A DNA stretch of 63,979 nt, the filler included, from Reclinomonas americana ATCC 50394 (lineage: Eukaryota), in assembly GCA_048213135.1 (NCBI GenBank). It is 5 parts of 4 records of this genome, joined end to end, with 100 filler letters (N's around TTAATTAATTAA, not from the genome) between each part and the next. Parts side by side here need not be neighbours in the genome. Positions count along the whole stretch, not along the records: positions 1 to 19,056 come from PS015307.1; positions 19,157 to 44,179 come from PS015308.1; positions 44,280 to 59,973 come from PS015308.1; positions 60,074 to 62,278 come from PS015310.1; positions 62,379 to 63,979 come from PS015316.1. The stretch is one strand, 5' to 3'. Positions within the stretch are counted from its first letter, which is position 1. Each line of letters begins with the position of its first letter. The translations under genes and the position numbers were made by a program. Below the pieces are notes generated by a model that had not been told where the DNA came from, made no database searches, and was given only the letters and a program-made list of their open reading frames with translations. Shown here one piece after another: positions 1,590-63,152 of the stretch.

Positions 1590-3098
1590 ATGATACGCAG
1601 AGTGTGTCTGCTTTTCGCGCTCCTGGCCTTTCTTGTGGCAATGGCCTCGTGCGTGGCCGAGGGGCGTCAAGCGACTCTGACGTACAAGCCTGTGAAGACT
1701 CTTCGCGGCCTCGACTTTTTCGACCCCGCCAACTTCAACTTTGACACGTTCAACGATCCCACCAATGGCTACGTGGACTACGTGAGCCGCGCGGAGGCCA
1801 TGTCGCTGGGCTTGACCTCGGTCGCCGCCAACGGCAATGCAGTCATTCGCGTCGAGTCGTCACAGGTGTGTGTGTGTGTGTGTGCGTGTGTGTGCTGCTA
1901 TAGTCCTCCACACGCGCTCTGGTGTGGCATGCAGCGCAGTGTGCGTTCGTGTTTCCTCCTTTTTTCCGCATGTTGGATGGCGATTGCTCGATTGGCCGGC
2001 TCTCTCATTTCTTCTCGCGCACTTTGCACAGATCCCTGTCAGCACTGCACGTGGGCGCAAGTCGGTGCGCATCAGCTCCACCGCTGTCTACAACTCCAAC
2101 ATGCTGTTCGTGTTGGATCTCGATCTTGCGCCCGCTGGCTGCGCGACGTGGCCGGCCTATTGGTTCCTCGGACCCAGCTGGCCCAACAATGGGGAGATCG
2201 ATGTCATTGAGGGCGTGAACACCATGAGCCGCGTGCAGACAACACTGCACACCAACAACGGGTGCACCATGGCCGGTGAGAGCCCGTCGCTGTTCACTGG
2301 GTCATGGGGCATCGGCACCAACAATCAGCCGGCCACCAACTGCTATATCTACGCCGCCAACCAATACCCGAATCAGGGGTGCGTGGCTGTAGGGAGGGAG
2401 AGGGAGAGGGCGTCATTGTGTCTCTGAAGTGAGGAGAAGCTGACACACTGGTGAGCAGGTGTGGCATTCTTGGAGCTAATAACTCGGTGAGCTCATCATG
2501 ATGCACCGTCTTGCGCCTGCGCTTCAGCGACACTCACCGATGCGTCTACACTATCTTGCCCCCCACCTCGCATGCAGTACGGACCAGGTTTCAACAGCAA
2601 CGGTGGCGGTATTTACGCCATGGCGTTCGAGGGCACCTCCATCCGCATGTGCGTTGTGCTTTCATCTTCAACACTGCAGCTGTCGTCTCACCGCCTTGTT
2701 GCTTGTGGTCCACAGGTGGTTCTGGCCGCGTGGCACTGCGCCTCCACCTGATGTACAATCGACAGCACCAAAGCCAGACACGTGGGGCACTCCGTACGCT
2801 TACTTCGCACTCGGCTCCCAGTGTGCGGCGCGTCACTTCAACAACCAGCAGCTGATCATCAAGTTGCGCATCGTGCTGCTTCTCTGCAGTATGCACACCT
2901 GCTCACTGACCTCGTCTATCTTCGTACAGTACGACTCTGTGCGGCGATTGGGCCGGCAACAGCTCAGCATGGAGCTCGAGCGGCTGTGCCGCGAAATTCC
3001 CGGACTACGCCACTTGCAACGACGTGGCACGCTTCCACCCAGAGATCTTTGCCGAGGCGTACTGGTCTATACGCTCGCTGGCAATGTACACAGCTTGA
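1590..3098 (+). CDS. Secreted GH16 endo-1,3(4)-beta-glucanase (laminarinase-like), copy 1; 6 exons (1590-1865, 2032-2378, 2459-2486, 2578-2648, 2716-2862, 2930-3098)
   Basis: Signal peptide MIRRVCLLFALLAFLVAMA. Motifs DPTNGYVDYV, RGRKSVRI, GCATWPAYW, catalytic GEIDVIEGVN, WFWPR, IINTTLCGDWAG and EAYWSI. All introns are GT-AG and in frame. Confidence 0.93.
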
Positions 3099-3305
3099 GT
3101 CCCTCGAGCTCCTGCATGCGCGGCTGATAAAACACCAATTTTGAAATCGTCAAGCCCTTGCATGCAAGAACAAGGCGCATTAGAGATCGCCGCACGTTTT
3201 CCGCTCTGTATAGTAGCACACAACCTGCAGTGCAACTCTAGCGTCGCGACTTCCACAGATCCGACTTCCACATACGAGACGGGACAACTCACACACATTC
3301 CGCCG

Positions 3306-4777
3306 ATGTCACGCAACGTGTGCCTGCTCATCGGCCTGTTGCTGCTGGCCGCCGCCGTGGCCCACCTCACAGAGGCACGCGCCTTGCCACCGACGCAGTC
3401 GTACAGGCTTCTGACAACCTACAGAGGAAGCGGCTTCTTCGCGGCCTCCAATTTCACGTTTGAGACCGAGAACGATCCCACCAACGGCTACGTGGACTAT
3501 GTGGGTCGCGACGAGGCACTGTCACGTCACCTGGCCGATGTGGATGCCTCCGGGAATGCCATTCTGCGCGTCGACACCTCGCAGGTGAATGCATTCATTC
3601 AATGCGTTTTCTTCCGATCGCCACCACTCACTGATTGTGCGTTTGCGTGTGCAGATCCCCAGCAACACGGCGCGTGGTCGCAAGTCTGTGCGCATCACCT
3701 CCACCACCGCCTACAATCCCAACACGCTGTTTGTGCTCGATCTGGACCACATGCCCACCGGGTGTGCGACGTGGCCGGCGTTTTGGCTCGTCGGCGACGA
3801 CTGGCCCAACAATGGCGAGATCGACATTATCGAGGGCGTCAACACGCAGTCGGTGGTGCAGACCACGTTGCACACCAACGACGGCTGCTCCATGGCCGGT
3901 CAAAGCTCGTCGTTGATGACGGGGCACTGGGCGCTCGGCACCAACAATCAGCCGGCCACCAACTGCTATGTGAACGCACCGAATCAGTTCGGCAACCAAG
4001 GGTGCGTGATTGGAGCTGCATCTCTTGCCACGTAGCAGGCGCGAGCTGACGCTGTGTTGTTCCCATCGAGGCACAGTTGCGGCATTGTTGGTGCCGATCA
4101 ATCGGTGCGTCGCAACTCTTGCTTCTTCTGCTTCTGATTCTTCTTGTTCTGCTTCGCCTTGTTGTTGCTGTCCTTCCCTTCCCCTTCCCCTTCCCCTCTC
4201 TCTCTCTCTCTCTCTCTCTCCTTCTCCTCCTCCTCTTCTCTTTCTTCTTCTTCTTCTTCTTCTTCTTCTTCTTCTTCTTCTTCTTCTTCTTGTCCTTACC
4301 AGCATTGTGTGACAATTCTCGCAGATGGGCTCTCCATTCAACAACCGCGGTGGTGGTGTGTATGCCACCGCCTTTGAGACATCGTCCATCCGTGTGTGGT
4401 TCTGGCCGCGTGGACAAGTGCCCAGCAACGTGCAGTCGGCCTCGCCCGACCCGAACACCTGGGGCGCCCCGTACGCCTACTTTACACTTGGTCCGCAGTG
4501 CCCGACAAAGCACTTTAACAACCTGCGCGTGGTCATCAAGTTGCGCGCACTTTTCGCTCGCCACCACCGCGTACTTCCTGTGCGCACCCCCCTCATATTT
4601 TTGTCCCCCGCGCTCAGCACCACTCTGTGCGGCGACTGGGCCGGCGCGGTGTGGGCCGCCAGCGGCTGCGCGCAAAAGTTCATGGAGCAGTCGTGCAGCG
4701 ACACCACCCGCTTCCACCCGGAGATCTTCACCGAGGCCTACTGGTCCCTGCGATCGCTGGCGGTGTACACGGCTTGA
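3306..4777 (+). CDS. Secreted GH16 endo-1,3(4)-beta-glucanase, tandem copy 2; 5 exons
   Basis: Signal peptide MSRNVCLLIGLLLLAAAVA. Motifs DPTNGYVDYV, GEIDIIEGVN, WFWPRG and INTTLCGDWAG. Ends YTA* like copy 1. Confidence 0.93.
4174..4291. repeat. Compound polypyrimidine microsatellite (TTCCCC)n-(CT)n-(CCT)n-(CTT)n in a GH16 intron
   Basis: Directly visible simple repeats. Confidence 0.9.
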
Positions 4778-4853
4778 GAGGTCGCCCTTGTGCATGAACG
4801 ACGGCAACGACGAAGCTGTCCGTCCTGCTGTTTTCCATTTTTCCTTGTTGTTT

Positions 4854-5858
4854 ATGAGCGACGACGAAGGCAGTGGCACTCTCCGACGATCGCAGCGCAA
4901 ACGCACTCGCCCAAGATCTCCGTCGCCACCCGCACCATCCTCTTCTGCACAAGAGAAGACGATTGACACTGCACACGAGCCACCACTCAAACGCGCCCAC
5001 ACATCACCCGCCGCCATGCATCCACTCATCGGAGCACTCCGACTCTCCTTTGCCGCACGCGCCGACCCTGTGCGAGCCGCCGCCCAATCCGCGTGTTTCG
5101 TGTCTCTCTCTGTGTGTCTGAGTGCACGTGCACGCAGCGTGTGATTGACACACTGTGACTGCAGACATGCGCAACAAGTTTGAGTTCTTCGGCCTCTGCG
5201 CTCCCGATCGTCGCGAGTGCCAGCGAGAGCCCTTTGCACAGCATCCACCCGCCACACTGCCAGTGTACGTGCAAGGTTGGTGTTTCCTCTCGCGCGCGCT
5301 CTCTCCTTCTCCCTCCTCTCACACAAACAAGTCATGCGCGAGATGTGGGCGCAACCCGAACGCGACTTCCAGCAGGCCGCTCTCGACTACGGTGCCAAGT
5401 TCCAGCCGCGTCTGTGCCACTCACTGGACGACGCCACGCACCTGCTATCGGTGTACCGTGATCTGGCGGTCGACAAGTCGTGGTGGGATACCGTGGACAT
5501 GCTGGCGTCGAAGCTCATCGGCGGTGTGGTGCGTGCTCATCGTGACACCCTGCTGCCGGTCATCGACAGCAGCTGGATTGAGCCGCCCGACGGCAATCTG
5601 TGGATCCGACGCTGTGCGCTGCTGTGCCAGCTGAGCTGGAAACGCGAGATGGACTTGGAGCGCGTGTGGCGCTACTGCAGGATCGCGTGCGCCGTGCCGA
5701 AACACGAACACGAGTTCTTCACGCACAAGGCGGTCGGCTGGTTGCTGCGGGAGACCGCCAAGACATTCCCGCAGCAAGTTCGTGAGTTTGTCAGAGAGGA
5801 GCGCGACCAGATGCCGGCATTGTCGTTCCGTGAGGCCACCAAGCACATAAAAGCTTGA
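4854..5858 (+). CDS. AlkD-like DNA alkylation repair glycosylase (HEAT-like repeat family); 3 exons
   Basis: Spliced product contains ADPVRAAAQSA-YMRNKFEFFGLCAPDRR, MWAQPERDFQ, KSWWDTVDMLA, NLWIRRCALL and EFFTHKAVGWLLRETAK, all AlkD family motifs. Confidence 0.85.
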
Positions 5859-6089: not shown

Positions 6090-7572
6090 ATGCAAGCGCC
6101 GGCCATTCAGCTTGACGTGCTGGAGACGGTGCTTGGCGACAGTCGCCTGCACCTCCCTCCTCTTGAGCGCGACACCGGCAATGCCACCTCGTCGTCATCT
6201 CTGTCCGCGGGTGCGCGACCCTCAAAACGCTTTCCCACCGCCGCCTCTGCTGGAGCTTCTCCTGTGCCACTAATGGGCATCTCTCTGAGTCCACTCTCTG
6301 CGGGCGGCAGCGGCGACATGATCACGGTGATTTCACCGTCAGACCGAGATCGTGTGGGAAGGCGAGAGGCTGCTTCTGGTGCTCCTCCGCCTCGCAGACC
6401 AGCACGCTCAGGTACGCGCGTGCCTCTCCCTCTCTCTCTCTCACGCTCTCCACTCCACTCCTCTTGCTTTGTTCCATTCAACATTGATGGGCGAGTCGCG
6501 CAGTGTCGCCCATGGATCACTTGCGTTCGTTAATGGCTGCGGCGCCTTCATCATCCTCCGGCAAGATGCCACCGCGCAGTGAGCACACAAGTCCGCGGAA
6601 TGAGCGAGGTGCTGGTGGCGGTGGTGGTGGTGCGGTGGGTGGCAAGCCGGGAGCGCTGCGTTCAGGCCGAGTGGCGCCCATGCCGACGGCGATTGAAGAC
6701 GAAACGCGGGTTTCGTACCTCGTGTGCTGCTGGCAAAGTATATGGGTTTTTTTCTCACACTTGCTGGTTGGTGGGCAGTTTACGCTGGAGGCCGCGGCAC
6801 AGAAACTGGTGGTGGCACCGTCGATGGAGATGCATGGTCTGAGCGATCAGGACACGCGGGCAGTGGTGGACCGGCGTGCCTACTTGCGGTCGCTGCGCAC
6901 GATTGAAAGCGACGCCACCATGTCCTCCATGTATCTCGACGCACCTCGTCTGCCGCTGTCGCTGTCGTCGTCCGACTCGTCACGAGGGTCGTCGCCACGG
7001 CGGGCGGGTCAGCAGGGCGACGTGAAGATGATCAAGGGCGGCTACACGGCACACGCCGACGACCTCGGCATGCGGCTGTGGGAGCGTGTGGAGAAGCGCA
7101 AGAACGGCAACCTCCCGGCTCCCGGTGGCGTCGGCAAGTCTGCGCCTTCGCCGCCCACCGAATCGTCACTGTTGTTGCGTTGCGCCGTCCCCGTGTCGCC
7201 CGCATCACTGGAGGGAAGAACTAATATTGTTTGTGTTTACTCGCTGCAGTGCTGCTGCTGCTGCTCGACTGGCGCCAGTGGACGGCCCAGCAGGCTCGCC
7301 GACAGCGACCACGGAGGTCAGCCCTGTGGCCGGTCGTCGATCACGGACACGCTCACCGCAACCCATGCCGGTGGGTCGTCGATCGCCATCGTCCTCAACA
7401 ACAGCAGGAGCAACCGCGACGCAGCAGCAGCAACAACAACAACTGGTCCAGCCCGCCGGCTCATGTTGCGTTGCTCGACGTGCCGTGCGGTCGCCTGTTG
7501 CCGGTAGCTCACCTTTACTGCCTCTCCAGTGTATGCTGCTCGACGTGCCCCACTGGCTGAAGTCGACGAACG
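6090..7572 (+). CDS. Multi-exon Ser/Pro/Gly-rich protein of unknown function running into a gap; may be the N-terminus of the downstream WD40 gene
   Basis: ATG 6090. Phase-consistent introns with donors near 6412, 6711, 7174 and 7465 link open frames. No domain recognised. Confidence 0.5.
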
Positions 7573-10712: not shown

Positions 10713-13700
10713 CAATGACAATCACAATCACAATGTCGAACCAGATGCGCGCACCAGCGTAGCCAAAGAAGGCCACCACGGCATTGCCGTCGGGATACAG
10801 CGTCGGTTGCTTCGTGTTCAACGACAAGTCCCTGAATTCGTTAACAATGATGGCCCGCAATCCGTACGCCACAAAATTGATCTGCAAATCGGCACACAAC
10901 GAGTAAGCCACTGCGCGAGAAGGTGGATGGTTGGTAAGTGGTCTCGAGAGACCTTTGGAATCCAACCTGTGACAGGAGAAAGCACGCGGAGGTGAGCATG
11001 CATTGAGTGGTGAATGAGAGCACACACACAAGTACATGAGCACGCAACTCAAGAACACCGGGACAGAGTCGCCGCCGACGTAGAATCCTGCACAAGCATG
11101 CGAGAGTGAGAGCGAGGCACACGAAGGAGAATGTGAAGCACAGCAGCCTCGCACCTGCAAAGAGCATGTGGAAAATCTACACCGAATCAAGACAGTACAA
11201 GGATGAGTGAGAAAGGAGCCGAAGCACAGCACTTGACGACCATGCAATGTCGACAAACCCAGAACAGCGGACTGTGGCACAACAACCAGTTGTCAGCATC
11301 CACCCATCGCCAATAGCATGAGAAAATTGCGACAAACAACACACCTCATAGCCAGCAGTGTTGCAGGATTGGGGAAGATGCCGACCTGCATAGCAGCGTG
11401 AGTCGCCACAAACACTTATGAACAGCGCACATGAAAAGCTCACCATAAGCACGCCAAGCGCGTACGACACCACGTAGAGAAGCAGGCAGATGCCGATCTG
11501 CAGCCACACGCGGTGAGACGAGTGCAGCACGGCGCGAGGAGCACTCTGACGGTCACGCAACAAAAATAAAGTAGCGACTGACTGGTTCGATGGTGTAGTT
11601 GACCATAAAGTACACAATGGTCCCGCTGTGCAGGAATGAGTGAGTGACACGAGGCCTGAAAACAAGCCTGGCGTACTGCACGAGCGACTCACCCCACAAT
11701 CGGATTCCATACAATGAGCGGCAATTCAACAGTCATCTTGGCGAGAATGTAAGGCACTGCAGCGCGTGGGGTTGAGACAAGATGCACACACCCACACATA
11801 TCGCTGTGGTTAGCAAAAACACTACGTACTTGATCCGTACAGCGCGCGTCCTCGATCGCGCAAGAAAATGTTGCGATCGGCGGGGAAGATGAACATGACA
11901 CTGACACTGCCAAAGATGGCGTAACCTGGGTGCACACACACACGCGTTCAGAGGGCAGTCGTGGCCAACAGACGAGCGAGCCCACAGAACACACCGACGA
12001 CGGTGAAGAAGAGCGAGCCGGTGCGGTTTTGTACATCGACCTCGTCGTAGCCTAGCCGCAGGAACACCAGACCGAGGCTGTGCAAAAGGCAAATGATTGA
12101 GCACGAGCCGGTGGTGATCTTCACAGCGCGAGTGCACGCAACAGCAGCGAGATGAACAGGTACTGCATGATTGTGCCCTTGAAGTGCAGTGGTTCACTGT
12201 GTGGGCGCGGAGATGAGACAATAGAGAAGTGAGGGAGAAAGGCGTAGGCGCATGCGCGACGCAACCGCCAAGCATCCAAGAAGCCGCGACGGACCAGAAT
12301 CGAGTACTGGTTGATGAAATTGGCGCGCGACTTTTTCAGCTTGTTGAGGTCCACCTCCTTCGGAGCTGGCGGTGCTTCCACGGAGCGCACATAGTATGGC
12401 GAATCGCGGAACGACTGGGCGAGCTGTCGCGCTGTGGATGTGGCATGCTCGAATTGATTTATCGGCATGTCGTCCAACTCGTTGTGCTGCTCGTGTCGAT
12501 GCTCGCCGTGGACCACCGCCATGAGGTACTCCACTGGGTTCTCGAGATCCGGCATTGGGTAGCCTGGTTTTATGGAGGGGGCAGCAGTGAGTGCGACAAA
12601 TGCAGAGGGGAGCTGCGAAAAGGGGAGGGGAATGGAGTACCGAGAGCGGCAAAGTAGTCTGCCACCTCTGGCTGCGGGCCGAAATACATGGTTTCACCGC
12701 GTGCCAGCAGCACGTAATTGTCGAAGAGCGAGAAAATGTCGGCACTCGGCTGGTGAATGGTGAGAACAATTGTGCCTGTAAGCGATAGATGAGGAACGGG
12801 CGCACGGCGGCGACAGCGGCGGCGGCGGAACACACGAAACGATTCTTGTGGCGCGCCAGCTGCTGCAGCGTCTCCACAATGCTGAGGGCGGTGAAGGAAT
12901 CGAGACCCTACATCGCACGGGGGGAGTGAGGGACGGGGGAGAATGTTCAGGAGCAGCAATCGTAGCTGACCGATGTCTGTTCATGATGGGGGAGGAACAG
13001 TAAGAAGAGTGAATGGAAACACGAGAATGGGGGGAGCGTCACGCAACAGGCTCATCCAAGAACACCAACGCCGGCTCCGACAACAGCTCCATGCCAATGG
13101 CACTGTGTTGAAGAGAGAGAAATCAGAGAAAAGTGCAGTACCATAGCCAGGTGGGGCGTGTGGCGCAACGCAACAGACGCTTGCGTTCACCACCAGAGAG
13201 ACCGCCCTGAATGCCACTGTTGGCTGCGTCCACTCCCACATAACTGCAGCGCAGTTGATTAATTCACACGTGCCACTGCGGCAACAAATAGCCATTAGCA
13301 ACGCACCCCGTCACTGTGTCGGCGCACGACTGCAAGCCGAGCTCCTCAATAATGCCGGCCACCTGCGATACATTCAGCGCCGAATCCACATCAGTGTGAG
13401 AAAATCGACTCGACGCAACTCGTTCCTCCTTCTCCTTTTTCGACACCGAGTCGGCGAGTTCGAGATCGGCCGCAAACCGCAGTGCCTCGCGTGGTGTCTG
13501 TGCACGAGCCAGTCAAGAGAAGGGACAACGCCGATAAGAGCGCTCGTGTGCGCACGCACCAGAGTGCCCATGAGCACGTCTTCCTGCGACACAAAGCCCG
13601 CCACACGATGCAACTCCGTCGGCGACACTTGCACACCGTTGAGGCGAATGGCGCCCGAAAGCTGGCCTGCACGATGACGACGACAAAAGTTTTTCAGGCC

Positions 13701-14683: not shown

Positions 14684-15612
14684 ATGGCGACCCGCGGACG
14701 TGCTGGTGCGACAGGCAACAAGTTCCGGTGAGTATATAGCGGCGTGTCTTGATGAACAGGGCAATGATGGAATCAGTGGGAGGAGGAAGAGAGGAAAGGG
14801 GGGAGTGCTGCTGCACATGAATGTCCAGTGAGACATGCGCCCCTCGCCTGCCCACCCACTGTCGTGTGCGTGTGTGCGTGTGTGTGTCTGTACAGAGTTG
14901 CTCTCGGTCTGCCAGTGGCTGCAGTCATGAACTGCGCCGGTGAGTGCATACTCTGTGTGTGTGCGCGCGTCTTGTAAGTGTGCATGTCGATCGCTCACGC
15001 CGCCTTTCCCTCTCTGTGTCTCTGTGTGCAGACAACACTGGTGCGCGCAACCTCTACATCATTGCCGTGAAGTGCATCAAGGGCCGCTTGAACCGCCTCC
15101 CGGCCGCCTCACCTGTTGCGTCCTTTCTCTCTCTCTCATGTGATTGATTCGTGTGCCAGAGCTACTCACTCACCACTCGCACGTGTGTGTTGCTGTGTTG
15201 CGTAGGGCGACATGATTGTGTGCTCGGTCAAGAAGGGCAAGCCCGATCTCCGTAAGAAGGGTGCGCTGGTTGTGCATGTCTCGAGAAGAGTGCGCCATGT
15301 GCTGCCACCCGCCCGCTCACTCTCTCCTCCTCAGTCATGTTGGGCGTGGTCATCCGCCAGCGCAAGTCGTGGCGCCGGTTCGACGGCACCACCATCTACT
15401 TTGAGGGTGCGTATGAAATCGCTTGCCTATGTCCTAGTCGTGTTGAGCAGAGTCATGACGTACCCTCCCCCGCTTCGTGTCACGCAGACAATGCTGGTGT
15501 GATTGTCAACAACAAGGGTGAGATGAAGGGGTCGGCCATCACTGGCCCGGTGGCGAAGGAGTGCGCCGAGATCTGGCCGCGTATCGCTGCCAACTCCAGC
15601 GCTGTCGTGTAA
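14684..15612 (+). CDS. RPL23: 60S ribosomal protein L23 (uL14); 6 exons
   Basis: [40 protein letters not shown]...[14 protein letters not shown]...[11 protein letters not shown]...[37 protein letters not shown]. Confidence 0.97.
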
Positions 15613-15795: not shown

Positions 15796-16817
15796 TCAGC
15801 GCCCCGTAGCAATGCTGTTCATGGTCTCCTTGAGCCACTGGATGAACGGCTTGCTGCTTTCGGGATTGGGAGCGAGTGACGATGACGGCGCCGCCGATCC
15901 ACTGCCCTCGCCCTCGCCTGGCGGTGCAGCGTATCGTTGCAGAATGCGATCCTTGAGCTTTTGCAGTGTCCTTGCGTCTGTGAGGCACGCACACGCACAA
16001 AGTGAGACTTTTGCAGAGGCAGCCATAAGTGGGGCACAGACGGACAAACCAGTGGAACCAAAGCCAAGCCGATAGCTGTCGTCGGGTTTGCTGCGCAGCG
16101 CCCGTCGACTCCTCTTGGCCGACTCGGGCATATCGGGGTCGTCCTCGTGCTCCTTGAGCCAGCGCGCGTACGCCTTTTGATCGAGCTTCTCATTGGCGGC
16201 ATCCTCGACAGCATCGCGCACAAAGTGGAAGATCGAGCGCAGATAGACGAGAATGCTCATGAAGATGTTCTGGTTGCGCTCCAGATGCCTCTCGTAGACG
16301 TGCGCAATGGCCACGGTGCCTTGCGGCGACACCAGTGGATGCCGCACATCGCGCGTCAACATGGTCAGCGACGGACACTTGTACGGGTACTCGTCGGGGA
16401 ACTCCAGGCGGAACTTGTACGCGCCACCCGCGAATGGACCCGCGCGCACAAACAGAATGCCATCCCACACTATGCACACACACACACACACAGGGGTGAG
16501 AGAGGGGTGAGAGAGAGCAAGGGAGAGCAACGCACCAAATGGACGCGTTGCCGATGGAATGACAAAGATGCCGCGTGGCTTGCGCTCCTTGATCTTCTTG
16601 CTGCGCGTGTGCACGCACACCGTGTATGTAAGTGAATGAGAGAGATGAACAGAGAGAGCACACCCAAGCACAAACTCAACTACTCAATGAGCAACCGCAA
16701 TGACGACAACGAGTGCGCCACCGCAGGCGGCAAACCGGCGATCGAGTGCGTTGATGGCACACTGCCGGCACCAGGTGGTGAGGCGACCCCTGCCGGCTGC
16801 TCTTGCTTCGCCGCCAT
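15796..16817 (-). CDS. AKTIP/FTS/crossbronx-like inactive ubiquitin-conjugating enzyme variant; 4 exons
   Basis: LLIEYKKIKERKPRGIFVIPS...WDGILFVRAGPFAGGAYKFRLEFPDEYP...HPLVSPQGTVAI. UBC fold with no Cys at the catalytic position. Confidence 0.8.
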
Positions 16818-16887: not shown

Positions 16888-18056
16888 ATGGTGAGTGCCT
16901 TTATATATATACACCCTCACACGCACTCTGTGTATCCGTGAGTGCATGGGGGGGCGAGGGGAGGGCGGTGAGGTAATGAACGAACACTGACGCGCGCGCG
17001 CTCGCGGATATCTCTCTCTCTCTCTGTGCGCAGTTGGGCGCACCGACCGTCCTCGCGCGTCGCCTCGAGTCCACCAACTCGACCTCGGTGCTTCGCGATG
17101 ACCTGGAGGGCGCCGGCCTGCTCTCACCAGTCGACCAAGTGCACCTGTCGGAGGAGCAGCGACGCGGCATGCGACGCCTCTTTGTCAAGCTGCTGCTCAT
17201 CAACTGGCTGCAGACGGCCTACCTCGCCTGCGCGGTCAGTGTCACGCAGCACGCGTTCGGTGGTCACATCGCCACCTGGCTGCGCAACTGCGTGCCTCTG
17301 CGCGCCTCGCTGCTGGCCTTCATTCTCGTCGTGCCCTTTTCGTGGTCGTTTGGCTGGGAGAATGGCAAATCGCGCTGGGTCACCATTCCGCTCCTCACGC
17401 TCTTCCTTGGTGCGTTCGGGGCCTTTGCAGCGGCGTGGAATGCCACCGAGGGCCATCACGTCATTGAAATGAGTTGCGCTCGTGTGTGTGAGCGAGTCTC
17501 ATCGCTCGTTGCTCATGGTGGTGTCGCAGCCTTGTACTTGGTGCTCATTGTGCACACGTCGGTGCTGGTCACGGTGGTGATCCTCGCGCGCTGGTCGATC
17601 GTGGCGCACCTGCCGTCCATTCTCACCCTCGTCGCCGTGGCCATTATCCTGTGCGTCACCAGCGCCATGGTGATCCAGTTCACACTGCCGTCGGTCTCCA
17701 TGTACCCTTCATGGTCGACGTTTGGCTGGAGCCTGGCCTTTTCGGTGCTGCTCTCGCTTGGTGTGGTAGAGCTGGCGTGCTTTGTTGGCATGATCAGCGA
17801 GCCAGACGAGGTGGATCTGGTGGAAGGTGCGTACACGGTGACGAAGGGGGGAAAACGGGAAGCGAGGAAACTGATTGACCGCGCAGCTGCATTCTTGCCG
17901 TGGATCGCTCGCTTCAACATCACCGAGTTCATCTTCTCGTGCATACGCCTGTGCTGCTTGACGGCCGACGATCCGTACTTTGCGCGCCACCACGCTCGCG
18001 AATACTCGCCAGTGCCCGGCTCCGGACGCAAGCTCGGCACGTCGACGGCCCGATAA
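16888..18056 (+). CDS. Multi-pass membrane protein, possibly a divergent Bax-inhibitor-1/TMBIM family member
   Basis: ATG|GTGAGT at 16888-16891 spliced to CAG|TTG at 17034. About 6-7 hydrophobic segments follow RRGMRRLFVKLLLINWLQ. Probable in-frame intron 17473-17529. Confidence 0.55.
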
Positions 18057-19056: not shown

Positions 19057-19100
19057 NNNNNNNNNNNNNNNNNNNNNNNNNNNNNNNNNNNNNNNNNNNN

Positions 19101-19221: not shown

Positions 19222-21277
<2,056 letters not shown>

Positions 21278-23485: not shown

Positions 23486-24903
23486 ATGGAGCTTCGTGTC
23501 GGAAACAAGTACCGACTCGGCCGCAAGATCGGCTCGGGATCCTTTGGTGAAATCTGTTGCGTCTCTCTCTCTTTTTCTGCTTGCTTGGGTCGCCTGCCTC
23601 TCACGCGCTGTGTGTGTGCAGACCAAGGCACCAACATTCAGAGCGGCGAGCCCGTGGCTATCAAGCTGGAGCCCGTCAAGACACGGCACCCACAGCTGCT
23701 GTACGAGTCGCGTCTGTACAAGATTTTGGGCAGCGGTGGCGGAGGTGAGACGACTCGCTTTCTCTCTCTCTTTTCCGTGGCTTGATATTCTTCCCGTCGC
23801 TCACCCACTTGTTCTTCCTCTAGCTGTCGGCATTCCGACGGTCAAGTGGTACGGTGTGGAGGGCGACTACAATGTGATGGTGCTGGATCTGCTGGGCCCG
23901 TCGCTGGAGGACCTCTTCACCTTCTGCTCGCGCAAGTTCTCGCTCAAGACGGTGCTGATGCTGGCCGACCAGATGATTTCGCGTGTGGAGTACGTGCACG
24001 CCAAGAACTTTATTCACCGCGATATCAAGCCGGACAATTTCCTCATGGGCACCGGCAAGAAGGGCCACCACGTGTACACGATTGATTTTGGACTGGCCAA
24101 GAAGTACCGTGACCCCAAGACACACCAGCACATCCCCTACAAGGAGAACAAGGCCCTGACTGGCACCGCCCGCTACGCCAGCATCAACACACACTTGGGC
24201 ATTGGTGCGTTATTTTTTTACGTTTTTTGATTGCTCCTCTCTCTGGTCTTCTCATTTTGTGGTGTATGTGTGTCGTACAGAGCAAAGCCGTCGTGACGAC
24301 TTGGAGAGTCTTGGACACGTGCTGTTGTACTTTTGCCGCGGCTCGCTGCCATGGCAAGGGCTGAAGGGCGCGACCAAGAAGCAAAAGTACGAGAAGATCA
24401 GCGAGAAGAAGATCTCCACACCGGTCGAGGCCCTGTGCAAGGGCTGCCCCTCCGAGTTCGCCACCTACATGAACTACACGCGCGCACTGCGATTCGAGGA
24501 CAAGCCCGACTACCAGTACGTGCGCAAGCTCTTCCGCGATCTGTTTGTCCGCGAGGGCTACCAGATGGATTATGTTGCGTCTTTTGTTGGTCAATGCAAA
24601 AGTGCGTATGTGTGTTTGTGGTGTCTCACCCGCAGTCTTCTTTTTGTATATAAACATCACAGGTGTTTGACTGGACCATTAAGCGAATTGTTGCGTCTTG
24701 TCTCGTGTGCCCTGCTCGACAAGCTTCAGGAGAGATGACTGACTTTCCTTGCCTTCTTCTTCTTCCTCCTCCCGTCGCAGCAAGAGAGCATTCAGGCCGA
24801 GCGACCACTGCGCGTGGCCGAGGCTGGTGGCGATGGCAAGAACGAGGGCACGAGTGGCGCAGCTGCCGCCGCCGCTGCCGACGAAGAAAGGGCCGCGGAA
24901 TAA
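23486..24903 (+). CDS. CK1: Casein kinase I; 6 exons
   Basis: [92 protein letters not shown] and DYVFDWT. Confidence 0.97.
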
Positions 24904-38264: not shown

Positions 38265-38309
<45 letters not shown>

Positions 38310-44279: not shown

Positions 44280-45812
44280 TGTCTCTCTCCTCCCCAACTG
44301 CAGCAGCGGCATCGCAGCCACAGCTGCGTCCGCGCCAAACAACTGCGCGTGTGCAGCATCCGTCGCAGCCGCTGACTCAAACCTCGCTGGCGTGTCACCA
44401 ATCGACGGGGTCACCGAGTCGGCTGGCGCCGGCGAGAACATCTCAAACGTGTCGCTGCTCGCAAAGTTGACAGTGGACGAAACCGCAGATGGTCGATGAG
44501 CCAGCGGGCGCTGTGGGTGATCGTGGTATTGCTGCTGCAACGAGGAGGTGGCGGTGGACTGCTGCTGTTGATGCAAGAGTTGATGTTGATGTTGCTGTTG
44601 AGATGTGCGCATGGAGGAGAGGGATGACGCCGACTTGACCGTGTGCATCTGCGGTAGCATGTGCGCGGCAATGTCGTCGTCAAAGCCGCCCTCCATGGTT
44701 GCATCGGCGCTGACCGAGTGTTGCAACTCGTCGTCTCGCCGCATGTAGCCCAGCATCGATGCCGCCGCGGCGGATTCAGCAATCTCCATCGACAGCAACG
44801 GCGGTGAGGGCGAATGCCCAGGTGCGTAGTACGGCTTGAGGCCGGCGGCGGTGACTGCTGGCATGGCGGCCATGGTGACCGGGTCCATTGCCGCAGACGC
44901 AGCGGCGGCCCCAGCAGCTGCGGCGGCCGACAACGAGGCAGTCGACATGGTTATCCCCGGTTGCTCAAAGAACATGGCATTCAGCAAACTGTGAGTCGAA
45001 TCCGAGGCCGGAAACGGCGTGGCCGGTTCGACTTGAGTCTGTTTAGCGCGTGCACCAAAGAGTGAGTGTCTGGAAACGACGCTCATGCCGAGACAGGGAC
45101 ACGAGACGCAACCGCCGTGTCGTCGTCGCTGTCGTCTTGTGCAGGCATGGGTGGCTCGGCACGGTTCCAATTCGCGCGCAGGAAGAGCACATACGAGTTC
45201 GCATGTGCGACCTCCTCGTCAGCGGCCAGCGACGACATTAGTGGCACAGTCGCCGAGAAGTCCTCCGCCTCCTCGGTCGTATCCGGAGGGAGCGGTATCC
45301 TGCTGGGCGACAAGACCTCCTGCGGTGCAGCAGCAGCAGCAGCAGCAGTGGTGTCTACTTGATCGTCCACGGCACTTGGTGTTGGGTCTGCTAATGGCGC
45401 GGCGCCGTCGGTCCATGCGAGGGCCGGTGTCGGCCGCACAATCGGTGGCAACATGATCGTGTGTCCCGATCGCGGCACATTGAGGCCCAGCGGCGACCCG
45501 CTCAGCGAGAACACTCCAGGCGCCACAGCCGAAGGCGGCGGCGGTGGTGGTGGCGACGACCGCGATGGCGACCGTGCTTCGAGCGCACCTCTCAATTCGA
45601 ACGTATTTGCCGAATGGCCACCAGCCGACGTTACATCATCGTCATCTTCGTCGTTCTGATTCATCACATGGCTCGGTGCATACGGAACCCCGCGCACGGG
45701 TGAGAGGAAAGGCTCATGCTCCTCCTGGCAGTGGAGGGAGAGAGAAAAGCATGCATAAGCAGTCACATTGCAATATCTGGGGTCACGAGGAACCACTGAC
45801 CTCTTCTTCCAT
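44280..45812 (-). CDS. Ala/Ser/Pro/Gln-rich protein of unknown function, truncated at the scaffold end
   Basis: Probable start ATG GAA GAA GAG|GTCAGT. Long open frames are joined by phase-0 introns. Confidence 0.5.
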
Positions 45813-46072: not shown

Positions 46073-48586
46073 ATGGAGGTCGACTCGGATGCTGGCGTCT
46101 CCATCATTGTTGCACAAGGTGAGATGATGGACAGCAGTGCGCGCGTGTATGTGTGCATGTGCGTGTGTGCGTGTGTCTCGCTATGTATGCCTGCATGTAC
46201 GAGAGAGAAGGAGGGAGGGAAGGCTGCGTGTGGGAGGCAAAGGCGTCGCACATGAGCATTGTGCACACGCTCACACCCACACACACGCTCTGTTGTCAGC
46301 GGCACTTGCGATGCTTCATGTGAACGGCGAGTGCAGTGAGAGCACACACACAATGAGAGAGAGAGAGAGACAGGCGAGTGACAAAGAGTGGGGGCGAGAC
46401 AAGAAAGAGATGGCCATGGCGCGAAACGCTCACTCTCTCACCATCACACAGAGGTGCTCGATGCGGTGTTGCTGATTGATCGCGGTCTGCTGGAGATGGA
46501 CGTGCGACACGTGGCGCGTGCACTGCGCGCGTTGGTGTCGCTGCGCTCGCGAATGTCGGGTCTGACTCTGCGCGAGGCCATTCAGCGTGTGGTCACACAG
46601 CAGGTGTGCACGGCGAATCGCACCTCTCTCTCCCTCTCTCCCTCTCTCTTCTCATGTAATGTGACTTACTCACACCTCATATGCACTGGTCGTCAGGCGG
46701 CTCCTGTGGTGTACGATCTGGTCGATCAGTGTGTCGGCATTCTGGCCACCAAGCCGGCGGTGAGTGCCAGCGATGCCTGTCGAAGAAGGATGTGCGCTCA
46801 TACGTGCGTGTTGTTAGGTGTGGGCTCCTCCGCAAACACCGTCGTCGGTTGCCGGCACGCCGCTGGCTCGCACGCCAGGCCGTGGCGACTTTTCGGCATT
46901 CAAAGACCCGAAGCCCAAGGCTCCGTCGGGTGGTGCCTCGTCGTCTGGTGCCTCGGGTTCGGCCGCCGCCGGTGACAAGAAGAAGGGCGGTGAGGACAAG
47001 GAGAAGGCGGCGGCAGAGGAGGAGGCGGAGAAGCCGGCAGTGCTCGACGCCAAGGGCAAGTTCCCGCGCCCTCGTGACCACATTGAGCCGGAGCTGGAGC
47101 TCTTCTTCCGGCTACTGGCCACTATTTTACTGATCGACGACCAGCAGTTGCCGCAGGTGTGTGTGCATTGGCGAAAGAAGGAGGAGATCAAGGGAGACAT
47201 GGTGGTTGATGTATGAGTGTGTGTGTGTGTGTGTGTGTCAGGCATTGTTGGCTGCCGAAGACAATGTGCGGTTTGTCGCCGACCACGAGCGCCACACGAT
47301 GGATCCGTTTGCGGCGCGCGCCTACTTCTACCTGTCACGGTGCCACGAGTTGCAGCACACCCTGGACTCGATTCGCGGGTGCGTTTCTTTCCATACACCT
47401 TGCACTTTTCTTCGGTGGTGTGACTGACGCCGCTGCGTAGCGTGTTGCAAGTGGCTTTCCGCACGGCTTGCCTGCGACGCGACGAGTACCGCCAGACGAC
47501 GTTGGCCAATCTGATCCTGCGCAACTTCCTGCACTACAACCTGTACGAGCAGGCCGACCAGTTCCAGGCTCTCTGCAAGTTCCCGTCCGACACGCGCATC
47601 CCGAACGAGCTGGCTCGCTTCCACTACTACAATGGCCGCATCAAGGCCATTCAGTTGGACTACGTCAATGCGTTTGATCACCTGGCGATTGCCATTCGCA
47701 AGGCGCCGACGCGCGCCGCGAGTGGCTTCCGCTCGCAAGTGACCAAGCTCAGCTGCGTCGTGCAAATGTTGATGGGCGAGATCCCCGAGCGCTCCATCTT
47801 CAGACAAAAGGATCTGGCTGCTCACCTCAGGCCCTACCTGCACCTGACGCAGGTGAGTGCTTGCATATGTGTGTGTGCGTTTCTTGGCAGATTTTGTTTG
47901 TTTGTTGTTCACTCGCTGGTTAGGCTGTGCGCGTTGGTGAGCTGTCGGGCTTTGCGACTGTGGTGAAAAAGTACTTTGAGCTGTTCCGGCGTGACAACAC
48001 CCTGACGCTGATTCAGCGCTTGACCACCAATGTGATCAAGACCGGTCTGCGCCGCATCAACCTGGCATACTCGCGCATCTCACTGGAGGATGTGCGTCGC
48101 AAGCTGGCGCTGGACTCTGTCGAGGCTGCGGAGGGCATTGTCGCCAAGGTGTGCGCGGTGTGCATGATCAGCTGCTGCTCGGTGACCGTGTGGCGCTCAT
48201 CCTCTGTTGTTGTGTGTTTCTGCAGGCCATTGGCGACGGTGTGATCGATGCCACCATTGACCACGAGCAGGGCTGGATGCAGAGTCGCGAGATTACTGAT
48301 GTGTACGTCACCGACGAGCCACACCAGGCCTTCCACAAGCGCACTCAGTACTGCCTCGACATTCACAACTCGGCCGTGAAGGTGACGCGACGTGTGTGTA
48401 TCGAGTTTTTGCTGACTGCCGACGTTGACCTCGTCTCCCTCTGCGACTGCTGCACAGGCCATGCGCTTCCCGCCTGACGCACACTCGAAGATCGTGGCCG
48501 ACTCGGAGAGCGAACGCCGCGCCCGCGATCTGGAGGAGCAGGAGATGCTGGAGATGGACGACGAGGAGGACGACGACCTCCCGTAA
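46073..48586 (+). CDS. PSMD3: 26S proteasome lid subunit RPN3
   Basis: RTACLRRDEYRQTTLANLILRNFLHYNLYEQADQF, NELARFHYYNGRIKAIQLDY, LMGEIPERSIF, NVIKTGLRRINLAYSRISL, IVAKAIGDGVIDA and [27 protein letters not shown]. The first exon is uncertain. Confidence 0.95.
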
Positions 48587-49023: not shown

Positions 49024-52000
49024 ATGGCCACGCGATTGAGCGACAAGATCAACGAGTTCCTCGCACAGCAGCAGCCACCGCAGCAGCAGCAGCCTCCGCC
49101 ACAGCAGGTGCACGCGCAAGCTGAGCACAAGTCCAGTCGACGGCGTGACAATGGTGAGAGAGTGGATGCACAGGCAGTGACGAACTGACAATGCATGTCG
49201 GCGACTGACACGGTGTGCGTGCAGTCACTCGGCGACCCAAGTCTTCCAGTGGCAGCAGCGGGAGTCGCAGCAGCAGCACAAGCAGTAGCAGCAGCAGCAG
49301 CAGCAGTAGTGGCAGCAGCAGCAGTGGAGGCAGCGCCAGGAGCCGAGGCAGCAGCAACAGTGGCAAGGTTGTCGATAATGCTGCTGCTGCTGTTGTTGCT
49401 GGTGTGCCTGCGGAAGCTGCGCAGTTTGGCGGTGGCAGCGCCAGCAGCGAGAGTGTCGTGCACAGCAGCGGCACGGGAAGCGTAGATGACTACGATGACG
49501 GCGACGATGATGATGATGGTGACGATGACTATGAGGATGCATTGGAGGGATGCGCCGGTAAGAGAGTGGAGTCACCGGGTGCACCTGCAGCGGAGGCGCA
49601 GTCGAGAAGACGGCCCTCTGCGTCGTCTGTTGGCGAACCTCCTGCCGTGACGGCGGCGGCAGCGGCGGCAGCGGCGGCTTCTGCGGCTTCACCGCTGCTG
49701 CAGCCGGTGATGAATTACTGGAGCATTCCGCCGTCGGCCGCCGCCAGCTTGGTGGGCGGCCGAGCGCCGGGCTCCACGTCTGTCACCTCGACGTCCACCA
49801 CAACGACGACCACGACCACCACCACCACCACCAGTGCCACCGCGGCGGCGTCTGCAGCGGCAGGCAGTGGTGCTGCTGGGTCTTCGGCGGCGCTGGAGGA
49901 AGACGGACTGATCCTCCTCACAAAGAGTGCCTACCGAACAGACGTTGAGTGGTGGCGCGCGTGGAGATCTTTTTGCTGCCTGCCTTGTCCTCCACTGACT
50001 TTGTNNNNNNNNNNNNNNNNNNNNNNNNNNNNNNNNNNNNNNNNNNNNNNNNNNNNNNNNNNNNNNNNNNNNNNNNNNNNNNNNNNNNNNNNNNNNNNNN
50101 NNNNNNNNNNNNNNNNNNNNNNNNNNNNNNNNNNNNNNNNNNNNNNNNNNNNNNNNNNNNNNNNNNNNNNNNNNNNNNNNNNNNNNNNNNNNNNNNNNNN
50201 NNNNNNNNNNNNNNNNNNNNNNNNNNNNNNNNNNNNNNNNNNNNNNNNNNNNNNNNNNNNNNNNNNNNNNNNNNNNNNNNNNNNNNNNNNNNNNNNNNNN
50301 NNNNNNNNNNNNNNNNNNNNNNNNNNNNNNNNNNNNNNNNNNNNNNNNNNNNNNNNNNNNNNNNNNNNNNNNNNNNNNNNNNNNNNNNNNNNNNNNNNNN
50401 NNNNNNNNNNNNNNNNNNNNNNNNNNNNNNNNNNNNNNNNNNNNNNNNNNNNNNNNNNNNNNNNNNNNNNNNNNNNNNNNNNNNNNNNNNNNNNNNNNNN
50501 NNNNNNNNNNNNNNNNNNNNNNNNNNNNNNNNNNNNNNNNNNNNNNNNNNNNNNNNNNNNNNNNNNNNNNNNNNNNNNNNNNNNNNNNNNNNNNNNNNNN
50601 NNNNNNNNNNNNNNNNNNNNNNNNNNNNNNNNNNNNNNNNNNNNNNNNNNNNNNNNNNNNNNNNNNNNNNNNNNNNNNNNNNNNNNNNNNNNNNNNNNNN
50701 NNNNNNNNNNNNNNNNNNNNCCGCAGCCACGGCCGGCCTGTCGTCATCGGCTGGGCGAAGACCAGCAGGGTCACCATCGACTCTGGATGCGCGTCACATG
50801 ACCCCACACTCTGCACCACCATTACACACCGAGCTCGGCGACGGCGTCATTGCTCTCGGTGTGAACGGGCGTCTCGGTCGACCAGGCGTCGCTGACCTCG
50901 GCGCGGGTTCTGTTGGCGATCTCATTGGCACCGGCACCGACGTGGATCACCGCCGTCGTGCCAAAGATGGACGCGCCAACGGATCCGCTGCTGGCGGCGA
51001 TGGGCCCGGCGGCACATCTGCTGCTGGACTCCTGTCGCGACACGATGCTGCCGAGCAGGACGACGAGTCCACAGCCCATGTCAATGGCGCTGGTACAGGT
51101 GGTCGAGGTGGCGGCGGTGGTGGCAGTCGTCGAGCAGTGCCTGCGGAGAACGGCGGCGGTGGTTCTCGTGCGCATCGTCGCCGTGCTGAGGTTGCCGACG
51201 ATGATGAGGACGATGAGGCCGACGATGAGGATGATGAGGAGGACGACATTGATGAGGATGATGATGGCGACGACGATGACGATGACGACGTTGACGACGA
51301 GGACCTGGACTACTACGATGACGACGATGATGACGACGAAGACGACTTGGGCGACGAGGATGGCGACAGTGACTTGGATGCGATTGAAGCGTCTCGGTTC
51401 AAGGTCGACGAACAGAGCGCCGGAGCCGGTCGACGAGTCGTGCGCAGCATCTGGGTCACTCGCGGTGGCTACCTCAGCGCACGGAAGACAACGTTTGACG
51501 TGCGCATCGAGGCACGCCAGGGCTCGACTGTGTGTCTGCAAACAACAGTGCACAACACCGGCAACAGTTGCGTGGCCGTTCTCTCTCTCTCTAGGTTGTC
51601 TGTCGAGAGATTCAAGACGACTAATCGTCGTTTCCCTGCAGTGCGCTGCGCCGTGATCACCGACGGATCGAAGCTGTTTGCGTATCACTGCGTGTTCCGA
51701 AAGCACGGCGGTGGTGGCATTCCGCCGTCGCCCTTTGGTATCGCCATCGACGATCCGGTGAGCACCAGTGACGACGATGATGAGGAGGAGTTCACACTGG
51801 AGGACTTTGATCGGGGGCTCTCGTTGGCGGCGTCGTTGGTCGAGGCGGAGCTGTCGGACGGTGCGTGGGGGAATGTTTATGGCGAGTCGGTGGACCAGGA
51901 TCAGCGTGATGCGGTGGCTTTGCATGGTGCGTCGCTGTGCTTGACCGTCCTCGACCATACGTGTGTTGGTACTGATGTGCATCTGTTTTTTTGCATGTGG

Positions 52001-59973: not shown

Positions 59974-60092
59974 NNNNNNNNNNNNNNNNNNNNNNNNNNN
60001 NNNNNNNNNNNNNNNNNTTAATTAATTAANNNNNNNNNNNNNNNNNNNNNNNNNNNNNNNNNNNNNNNNNNNNCACACACACACATCACAGC

Positions 60093-61390: not shown

Positions 61391-62270
61391 ACCTCCCGCC
61401 GTGACTGGCCATGGTCGACAGGCCGGCCCCTGGGCGTTCGGCTTGCAGACGGCAAGGCGGCTGACACACTGCTGCTGCGCCGTCTGCTCCGCTTCAGCGG
61501 TGGCACGGCCAGCTGCAGCTGGCCGCTTGCCGCTGCCGTGGCACCGCCGGCCGATTGTCTCGAGGTGGGCCTCGTCGCCACTAGCACTGTTGGTGCGGCC
61601 ACCGACTGCGAACGTGAGCGAGTACGTCTGACCTCCGCGCGTGTCACGATCACGGTTGGCGCATCTGAAGCCGCCGCTTCTTCTGTTGGTGATGTCGACT
61701 TCGGTGGCTCGTGGACACTCTGAAGGCAACAGAAAAGGCGCATCAGCAACAGTGACAAGCGACCCAAGACGCAATGCATGAAATACCTCGCTGCCGCTGG
61801 CGGCGCTGTCGGCTGCGGCACTGGCGGTACTGGCGGCACTGGCGACCGCTTGTGGCCGAAAGAGGCTGTACATTATCTTCGGCTCCAGCAAAGAATATAC
61901 TGAATCCTTGCCTCGAACAGCGAGAGTAGCCGCGTGGAGAAGGTTGGAAAGCATCTGCAAATGGACACAAATGCAATGCAGATGAGAAAAGGCAGCGTGA
62001 ACACCGTGTGCACTGCAGTGCGCAGTGCGCAACTTGAAGCTGTCCATGCAGCACCAGAAGTTGGTGCTCCTTCACGCGCCACACAGACACCGGCACCTCC
62101 GCATTCGGCTGCTCGATATCGCCGTTTCGGTCCGATTGCGCTCGCCGATTCTGCTTTGAGTGGATTTTCTTGCAGATCCTGTTGTAAACAGGCTTGTTTA
62201 ACAAGGCGGCTCCCGGACCTGTGTGTCTGGATGATCTCACACACGCGCTACACACATGAACTTCGAGTGA
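61391..62270 (-). CDS. Internal exons of an unidentified protein
   Basis: Open frames with GT-AG introns (…IEQPNAE|…LVLHGQLQ|MLSNLLHAATLAVRGK…SGSE|…). Confidence 0.4.
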
Positions 62271-62419
62271 GCAGCTCANNNNNNNNNNNNNNNNNNNNNN
62301 NNNNNNNNNNNNNNNNNNNNNNTTAATTAATTAANNNNNNNNNNNNNNNNNNNNNNNNNNNNNNNNNNNNNNNNNNNNGAAGCACAACAACAGAGAATGG
62401 AGAGACGCAAGCACACAAC

Positions 62420-63152
62420 TGTTCCAGTCGCCACCACCAAAGCGCTCCGGATCGCGCATACCCTGCACATCCACCAGCAGCTCGTCGTTCTTGTCCAGAA
62501 TGACCTGCGTGGCGAGCTCGACTGGCGTCACCACGCGCTGCATAATTGTAAAGTGAGTCGACAAGCTCACTGGCACGGAATTCGCAGTCGCCACAACACA
62601 CACCGGTGTGGATCCCACAATCTCTGTTCTCCGCTGCAGAGTCGGCAGGGCGTCCTTGACCTCGTAGAACACCAGGTGCTTGAACAGGTACTGCGTGGCG
62701 AAGACGCATGAGCGCCAACACAGCTGCGCATGATTGTCAACAAAAAAAAAACAGACAAACCTGCATGTCATTCTTCGGCTCCACTCCGCGCGGAATGTCC
62801 ATCACCACGCGCGAGAACACAAACACCGCCACCTCGTTGTGCTCGCGGTACTGCAGCACACGCGTCGAGAACGTCTCGTCGTACTTGGGAGTGCGCTTCT
62901 GCAGCAACACGTCGCGCGAGGAGGCATGCACTTTTTGGATTTGAATGTCTGTGCATTGTTCGTGTGAGCAACGTCACCACGGGGGAGGATCACAAAAACC
63001 CACACGCAACATTGGCCATCGCTGTGTCTCAACTCGTCCGTGACCACATCCTTTGGTGACATGATTTCGGCGTTCGGGAACTTGGTGGTGATGCGGCGCT
63101 GGAACTCGGTTGGGCTCTCCAATTCGGCGCCGCGGTAGATGAACTCGCGGTT
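62420..63152 (-). CDS. DOCK-family Rac/Cdc42 GEF, DHR2 exons (fragment)
   Basis: NREFIYRGAELESPTEFQRRITTKFPNAEIM...DGQ-YIQIQKV...FVFSR...LPTLQRRTEIV...TPVELATQVILDKNDEL. Confidence 0.85.

Follow-up and report, generated by a model that had tools for sequence, protein, structure and literature searches.

Splice-site registers in described systems

At mammalian 5' splice sites of the GUUAAGU type, Roca and Krainer reportedly found in 2009 that all base pairs with U1 small nuclear RNA (snRNA) are moved by one position, while the cut still falls at the GU. The present analysis deals with an abundant class of 5' splice sites (donors) of similar build, mostly GTTGCGT, in a stretch of 63,979 bases from Reclinomonas americana ATCC 50394 (GCA_048213135.1), which is called the window here. 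Its donors, designated class 2 to tell them from the ordinary donors of class 1, have the same architecture as the mammalian sites (GU, an extra U, and then the usual downstream consensus), but the downstream bases are GCGU and not AAGU. According to the portion of PMC4856993 used here, a shifted register exists and is validated in human 5' splice sites, and validated noncanonical registers together account for 3119 of 201,541 human donors (1.5%). Compared with that figure from the same portion, the single class in the window is roughly tenfold more frequent, with 16-25% of the introns. The human bulge +2/+3 register (Roca et al. 2012; Tan et al. 2016) has the same intron side, with an extra U after GU. 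Exon pairing is kept in that register, whereas the exon-end G is depleted in class 2.

Donors of Entamoeba follow a single consensus, GTTTGT, with T at +3. Such donors begin with GTT as class 2 does, but retain G at +5 and T at +6, whereas GTTGCGT has C at +5. Donors of this build (GTTTGT, GTTGGT, GTTAGT) are also present in the window (nine predicted), all with G at -1 like the ordinary sites. Diplonemids and euglenids have diverse splice sites, and the CK1 protein of the window is most like euglenozoan and environmental sequences. In the part of PMC12621601 drawn on, diplonemid donors follow (G)/GTATG, or GT-AG is lacking altogether; the introns of the window are GT-AG with GTGCGT. The introns of D. 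papillatum number 1.6 per gene and are much longer than the 57-91 nucleotides (nt) typical here, in the corresponding part of PMC10161547, and on intron density and length this species was rejected as the source of the window. No description of GTTGCGT or GUUGCGU as a splice site was found among the literature matches listed, and the listed matches on shifted base-pairing of U1 concerned human, yeast or worm only.

Junctions placed by homology or paralogy

Junctions were placed with a purpose-written protein-to-DNA spliced aligner, in which the splice dinucleotides were unconstrained. At low penalty and with homologues of about 50% identity this aligner over-calls introns, and the junctions kept are those common to most homologues. 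CK1 was aligned to P0014, a protein of 336 residues from another organism, which was deemed transcript-like because it is encoded on a contig of 1.3 kb. One CK1 exon is 97% identical to P0014 and about 90% identical to euglenid sequences. Five introns were placed in CK1. Three of them, starting at 23556, 24574 and 24690, have the donor GTTGCGT and end with CAG, and the other two have the ordinary donors GTGAGA and GTGCGT. The introns placed in this and other genes, with two ordinary donors for comparison, are the following (a slash marks the boundary of exon and intron).

23556..23621, plus strand: CK1 intron 1, GTTGCGT, phase 1 (GEI/Y); unique best of 10 listed junctions and the only GT-AG option
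24574..24662, plus strand: CK1 intron 4, GTTGCGT; the only GT-AG option among four junctions of equal score
24690..24780, plus strand: CK1 intron 5, GTTGCGT, after a 27-nt exon; unconstrained aligner, tail past the junction matching P0014
24205..24280, plus strand: CK1 intron 3, ordinary comparison donor G/GTGCGT; unconstrained aligner
15115..15205, plus strand: RPL23/uL14 intron, GTTGCGT; solved uL14 chains
13103..13174, minus strand: ABCG intron after RKR, GTTGCGT; three of four homologues, the fourth shifted by 2 nt; both gene-finder runs
2863..2929, plus strand: GH16 paralogue 1 intron, GTTGCGC; paralogue alignment, forcing cost 4.3 nats
4540..4617, plus strand: GH16 paralogue 2 intron, GTTGCGC; paralogue alignment, both gene-finder runs
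62949..63010, minus strand: DOCK (DHR-2) intron, GTTGCGT, phase 1 (GQ/Y); DOCK2 alignment, both gene-finder runs
40922..40987, plus strand: SPT16 intron, GTTTCGT; donor placed by the SPT16 homologue P0248, both gene-finder runs
43008..43076, plus strand: SPT16 intron, GTTGCGT; donor-aware finder, P0248 putting a 66-nt gap 3 nt away
47853..47923, plus strand: Rpn3 intron, ordinary comparison donor G/GTGAGT; six of six homologues

The junction at 23556 is the unique best one, since with it the conserved Tyr of GEIY is regained. As in introns of the U2 type, GT-AG is the sole or the tie-breaking solution of the aligner in CK1, and RPL23 agrees with this. The RPL23 open reading frame (ORF) ending at 15114 aligns to uL14 up to residue 56 and runs one residue further, and the ORF from 15206 aligns from residue 58; the two ORFs abut at chain residues 56/57 and 58, so the junction 15115-15205 is exact. 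The two GH16 paralogues are alike through ATCAA/GTTGCGC, diverge with insertions and deletions in the intron bodies (67 and 78 nt), and are alike again just after CAG. The alignment of the DOCK exon to the DHR-2 chain of DOCK2 in the PDB reaches the last residue of the exon, whose end is at 63011, and the next exon begins with (Y)IQ; with the exon that lies downstream of 63010 as query, the PDB returned no match. For ABCG, a query with an exon of 50 amino acids returned four distant proteins only, and the SPT16 search gave eight weak matches with P0248 as the one true usable homologue. Rpn3 has four ordinary donors placed by homology and none of the GTTGCGT kind; no protein found exceeds 58% identity to the Rpn3 exon used, with 78-80% of that exon covered.

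In the preliminary description, invariant protein motifs were said to fix many of the class 2 donors. This was borne out to the nucleotide by the unconstrained alignment to P0014, which places the CK1 donor (GEI-Y) at 23556, and by the contiguous uL14 residues across the RPL23 junction (AASP/GD, donor 15115). Supportive, if less exact, evidence is given by three of the four ABCG homologues (RKR-L, donor 13174), by the DOCK2 alignment reaching the exon end before (Y)IQ (GQ-Y, donor 63010), and by the pattern of conservation between the two GH16 paralogues (donors 2863 and 4540). The ABCG donor 13047 (LDEP/TS) proved ambiguous, as it needs a micro-exon of 6 nt; else a donor five bases downstream does equally well.

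Donor motif and share of the introns

As had been claimed for 32 sites with an extra T, GTT begins at the given base in 31, the exception being 6711, whose GT lies one base earlier, at 6710. The pair of G at +6 with T at +7 is present in 29 of the 32, and the remaining three (2863, 4540 and 17473) read GTTGCGC. One extra base is found between the GU and the usual downstream consensus (GTTGCGT against GTGCGT), as in shifted-register sites. On both strands of the window GTTGCGT occurs 33 times, with 7.3 occurrences expected from base composition, and GTGCGT 114 times, with 35 expected; the claimed sites account for 23 of the 33 GTTGCGT occurrences.

Introns were also predicted with a donor-blind gene finder, which scores codon usage, intron composition (the first 8 intron bases skipped), GT...AG and length, and which was trained first on the pieces backed by homology and afterwards on the introns it had itself predicted, all in the same window. 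The donor-blind run gave 101 introns, with GTTGCGT as the commonest donor 7-mer (11 introns). It called as donors 11 of the 33 GTTGCGT occurrences versus 101 of 7,435 GT sites (1.4%; p = 4e-13), the highest call rate among 138 frequent GT 7-mers. When an unsupervised two-motif mixture was fitted to the 101 donors by expectation-maximization, the motifs were caG/GTGcGT with a weight of 0.75 and ncT/GTTGCGT with a weight of 0.25, and the Bayesian information criterion slightly favoured two motifs over one (2745.6 vs. 2750.5). The donor-aware run, which used the learned mixture, gave 104 introns: 18 of the GTTNNGT type, two with GTTGCGC, 42 with strict GTNNGT, and 42 looser variants or noise. It recovered 19 of the 32 claimed sites (15, to the exact base, in the donor-blind run) and added one site absent from the earlier list, at 11561. 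Class 2 has a share of 16 of 101 introns in the donor-blind run and 20 of 104 in the donor-aware run, which with the mixture weight spans 16-25%. The earlier estimate of a fifth to a quarter of the introns agrees with this range, and so does the claim that donors with the extra T are a routine class here, in contrast to the 1.5% of human donors. An ORF-continuity filter was uninformative, as its lax version passed 56% of all GT sites.

At the 13 sites missed by the donor-aware finder, the donor was forced and the cost was measured in nats. The cost was below 5 nats for 2863, 6710, 12840, 13419 and 19887, and 10-19 nats for 7465, 9375, 9495, 33908 and 36838, where the local coding signal is weak. 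No intron was delimited at 9637, 49944 and 62419, since it would extend into a gap of N.

The class could be an artefact, either because a T homopolymer was over-called or because the true donors are nearby GTs, for example five bases downstream. A second GT at +6, followed by G, is present in 14 of the 32 claimed sites, and at 13047 the aligner prefers the downstream GT if one intron is allowed (a 134-nt intron, with the same protein length and two residues differing). The scaffold is also a draft, with 27 runs of N and contigs apparently in inverted orientation. However, the junctions of CK1 and RPL23 are known to the single base, and the GT at +6 would be a poor donor there (GTCTCT, GTCCTT), the TT is present in both GH16 paralogues, and the donor-blind finder, to which both GTs are equal, picked the GTT at 13047, 34823, 51567 and 63010.

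Exon end and pairing register

The last base of the exon differs between the two classes. G at -1 is present in 37 of 45 donors of the form GT[AG]NG[TC] versus three of the 32 claimed sites (Fisher p = 9e-11). Among the predicted sites it is found in 49 of all 58 donors with G at +5 and in two of 20 in class 2, and in the donor-blind run in 24 of 33 ordinary donors versus three of 16 in class 2. The frequency in class 2 (3/32) is even below the frequency of G in exons, 0.32 (binomial p = 0.004). Nine out of nine predicted GTT donors that keep G at +5 and T at +6 (GTTTGT, GTTGGT, GTTAGT) have G at -1, and its loss is therefore tied to the shift rather than to T at +3.

With an over-called T, G/GTGCGT would become G/GTTGCGT and the G at -1 would stay where it was, yet this G is absent, so the over-call reading fails and an artefact of either kind is extremely improbable. 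The argument of the preliminary description against an over-call, that the exons read in frame, does not hold, since an over-called T inside the intron leaves the exon frames intact.

For the exon flank of class 2 (positions -3 to -1), the log-likelihood is -129.3 with the ordinary profile shifted by one base, -176.1 with the profile in the same register, and -135.2 with the exon background. The exon-side preference moves with the register, G at +1 replacing G at -1, as expected of shifted-register sites. When lined up on TGCGT, both classes form one element of nine bases, ..G-G-TGCGT in class 1 and ..G-T-TGCGT in class 2. Over the rest of the motif class 2 is stricter, with C at +5 in 29 of 32 sites versus C at +4 in 18 of 45 ordinary sites, as expected if this strictness offsets a mismatch.

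Alternatively, a single U1 could pair with G at +1 and U at +2, with the U at +2 or +3 looped out as a bulge and pairing resumed on GCGU. A one-base bulge at +3 (or +2) is validated in human cells, by the part of PMC4856993 used, and when exon bases pair too it would give more base pairs than the shifted register. But G at -1 would pair in such a duplex and should have its ordinary frequency, and it was found in 3/32 sites versus 49/58, lower than in exons generally; the same-register profile is also far behind the shifted one. The exon-side pairing (-1G, -2A) that a bulged register keeps is not reflected in the sites, where G at -1 is depleted. As the bulged register retains the benefit of this G, the reading is disfavoured and seems quite unlikely. 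The missing G at -1 favours a shifted register of U1 over a bulged U or a sequencing artefact.

Proposed mechanism

The GTTGCGT sites are real donors, frequent, and without the exon-end G. Two donor kinds are in use, G/GTGCGT or G/GTGAGT as the ordinary kind, and [not G]/GTTGCGT as the second one, where T stands in place of the usual first intron G, and the usual exon-end G is the first base of the intron. A single U1 snRNA would bind both kinds in the same geometry, so that at the second kind its register would be shifted by one base relative to the cut. Later steps (U6, U5, Prp8) would set the cut at the first GU within the element that U1 has bound, and U6 would have to tolerate one extra base between the GU and the downstream G-U pair, or to dispense with that pairing. 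Whether one U1 in fact binds both donor kinds, in a register shifted by one base at GTTGCGT, stands evenly balanced on the evidence of the sites; everything in this scheme that concerns U6 is what we infer. The flexible U1 register suggested earlier fits the loss of G at -1 and the exon flank moved by one base.

The earlier suggestion had named a duplicated U1 as well, and class 2 could be read in the normal register by an additional U1 whose 5' end is complementary to GUUGCGU, with the ordinary U1 left for GUGCGU. The two-motif mixture is clean, class 2 sites are near invariant over seven bases, as a dedicated guide would give, and a variant with a base other than C at position 9 would also explain the missing G at -1. 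As far as the portions of the sources used here go, the diplonemid S. specki is reported to have U1 5'-end variants in one genome (PMC12621601), and variant U1 5' ends are reported for humans too. No snRNA gene was found within the window with Rfam, either at the gathering thresholds or at E <= 1 (only two tRNAs and sub-threshold noise), and a second U1 is thus without direct support. Moreover, the exon flank of class 2 resembles the ordinary flank moved by one base, which is predicted by one U1 and not by a second. Two U1 snRNAs are therefore considered unlikely, though the least unlikely of the alternatives to a single U1 with a shifted register.

A standard U1 5' end would not select C at +4 or +5. 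C is favoured at these positions nevertheless, and recognition could then do without U1 pairing, a protein or the tri-snRNP (small nuclear ribonucleoprotein) reading TGCGT at a loose distance from the GU, with the difference at -1 as a side effect. Selection that is independent of U1 or tolerant of distance is mentioned for a few human cases in the part of PMC4856993 used. Only two spacings occur here, however, one base apart and each tied to the presence or absence of G at -1, which a loose reader would not give, and this kind of recognition is very unlikely.

Several points weigh against a single U1 with a shifted register. The shifted profile is better than the exon background by 5.9 nats only, a modest margin, and the signal is mostly the missing G at -1. 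The preference for C at +4/+5 is not accounted for by a standard U1, and the local U1 may differ in ways that alter the argument. The second stage of the gene finder learned its donors from the first stage, and the counts of G at -1 in class 1 are partly self-reinforced, although the donor-blind counts, while weaker, go in the same direction. Support failed for eight of the 32 claimed sites. The register of U1 at class 2 sites is deduced from site statistics alone, and every junction is placed by protein homology or by a model.

Other introns of class 2

Further class 2 introns were predicted by the gene finders or by forcing, several of them in the ABCG gene.

12776..12840, minus strand: ABCG intron, GTTTCGT; forcing cost 0.9 nats, homologues putting a 68-nt gap 2 nt away
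13363..13419, minus strand: ABCG intron, GTTGCGT; forcing cost 4.3 nats, four homologue placements scattered
12197..12265, minus strand: ABCG intron, GTTGCGT; both gene-finder runs
12078..12142, minus strand: ABCG intron, GTTGCGT; donor-aware finder
11498..11561, minus strand: ABCG intron, GTTGCGT, absent from the earlier list; donor-aware finder
10911..11048, minus strand: ABCG intron, GTTGCGT; donor-aware finder
12908..13047, minus strand: ABCG, either a single 140-nt intron or a pair of introns with a 6-nt micro-exon (TS) between them; GTTGCGT at 13047 or GTGACG at 13042, ambiguous
5095..5164, plus strand: intron, GTTTCGT; donor-aware finder, with a second GT 2 nt upstream (the donor-blind run chose 5093)
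6710..6778, plus strand: intron, GTTTCGT; given as 6711 in the earlier list, forcing cost below 5 nats
16601..16680, minus strand: intron of the E2 (UQ_con) gene, GTTGAGT; Pfam, both gene-finder runs
17473..17529, plus strand: intron, GTTGCGC; both gene-finder runs
19819..19887, minus strand: intron, GTTGCGT; forcing cost 2.2 nats
34761..34823, minus strand: intron of the Rubicon-homology-domain gene, GTTGCGT; Pfam, both gene-finder runs
45039..45112, minus strand: intron, GTTGCGT; both gene-finder runs
51567..51641, plus strand: intron, GTTGCGT; both gene-finder runs

The candidate micro-exon of ABCG is at 12971-12976 (minus strand), encodes Thr-Ser of the ABC Walker-B/D-loop region, and has AG before it and GT after it. 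With this exon the interval of 140 nt would fall into introns of about 71 and 62 nt, which are typical sizes. The CK1 exon at 24663-24689 (plus strand, 27 nt) lies between two GTTGCGT introns, and very short exons seem to be normal here. Two more GTTGCGT copies overlap 3' ends of class 2 introns, one at 15197 (plus strand), where the intron ends with GTTGCGTAG at 15205, and one at 34761 (minus strand), where the boundary reads CAG/TTGCGT; both overlaps are probably a coincidence.

A branch-like motif CTNAY was found in 18 of 20 class 2 introns, mostly 12-38 nt from the 3' end, and the acceptor is CAG in 18 of 20. Their lengths of 57-140 nt are as in class 1, and the composition is alike too. 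In branch motif, acceptor and length they correspond to the U2 type, and class 2 introns are ordinary short GT-AG introns of this type whose 5' splice site is of another, likewise abundant kind.

Introns of the U12 type have the donor consensus [AG]TATCCTT, which none of the 32 donors resembles, and the branch-like motif is CTNAY; this type was rejected. A family of introner-like elements was rejected as well, as class 2 introns resemble one another no more than they resemble class 1; the mean pairwise local score is 8.98 among class 2 introns, 8.83 among class 1 introns and 8.78 between the classes. When metagenomes were scanned with the CK1 exon (80 loci, the best 88% identical), no enrichment of GTTGCGT was found in the related loci. 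Six metagenome CK1 loci were aligned, and the aligner put gaps elsewhere, none starting with GTTGCGT; these loci are too distant to help.

Gene content and assembly of the window

The window has a G+C content of 51% and contains 8,052 N in 27 runs, and the scaffold is of draft quality. By Pfam search on ORF pieces its gene content is that of an intron-rich eukaryote. Matches include SRP14, a DNA-alkylation-repair protein (PF08713; 5184-5855, plus strand), the ABCG transporter, RPL23, an E2 enzyme (UQ_con), protein kinases including CK1, malonyl-CoA decarboxylase, a Rubicon-homology protein, SPT16, Rpn3, and beta-helix proteins. Right-handed beta-helix/NosD-like repeats extend across several exons at 52269-53611 (plus strand). 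The GH16-like genes are tandem paralogues at about 2480-3200 and 4050-4800 (plus strand), with the C-terminal ..TTLCGDW.. and a common intron position. Short exons rarely match any Pfam family, and the ORF-piece search gave no Pfam match in the DOCK region, where the PDB search did find DOCK2. Two tRNA genes lie amid protein-coding genes, at 33266-33338 (minus strand, 71.2 bits) and at 39041-39112 (minus strand, 63.9 bits), the latter adjoining an inverted piece of the SPT16 N-lobe.

Parts of the SPT16 gene follow one another on alternating strands, with runs of N between them: 38350-38916 (minus), 40688-41356 (plus), 41894-42262 (minus) and 42677-43476 (plus). They encode the N-lobe, the M24-like domain, the middle domain (positions 4-53 and then 59-104) and the PH-like domain. 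From this alternation of strands, some contigs of the scaffold appear to be in the wrong orientation. The N blocks at 19057-19156, 44180-44279, 59974-60073 and 62279-62378 each consist of 44 N, 12 real bases and 44 N, and seven other runs are exactly 20 N long; such a layout seems to come from the assembler or from masking, and not from biology.

Significance for splice-site recognition

The rule that fixes the cut site after U1 has left is still argued from few atypical human sites. A shifted donor as a standard class would provide many natural test cases, if about 25 per 64 kb holds genome-wide, and would show the evolutionary reach of the register tolerance of U1 and U6. Gene finders with a donor model of six bases and one register would mis-score about one fifth of the donors here, and hence the reading frames. 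It is conceivable, though a little on the doubtful side, that in this lineage both donor types are routinely bound by one U1 snRNP in an unchanged geometry and that cleavage occurs at whichever G precedes U. If true, U1 register and cleavage site would be uncoupled by one base at about one fifth of the introns, a helix of U6 and the 5' splice site that routinely accepts an extra base would be required, and the organism would offer a natural system for telling apart, by genetic means, how U1 hands over to U6 and what rule places the cut.

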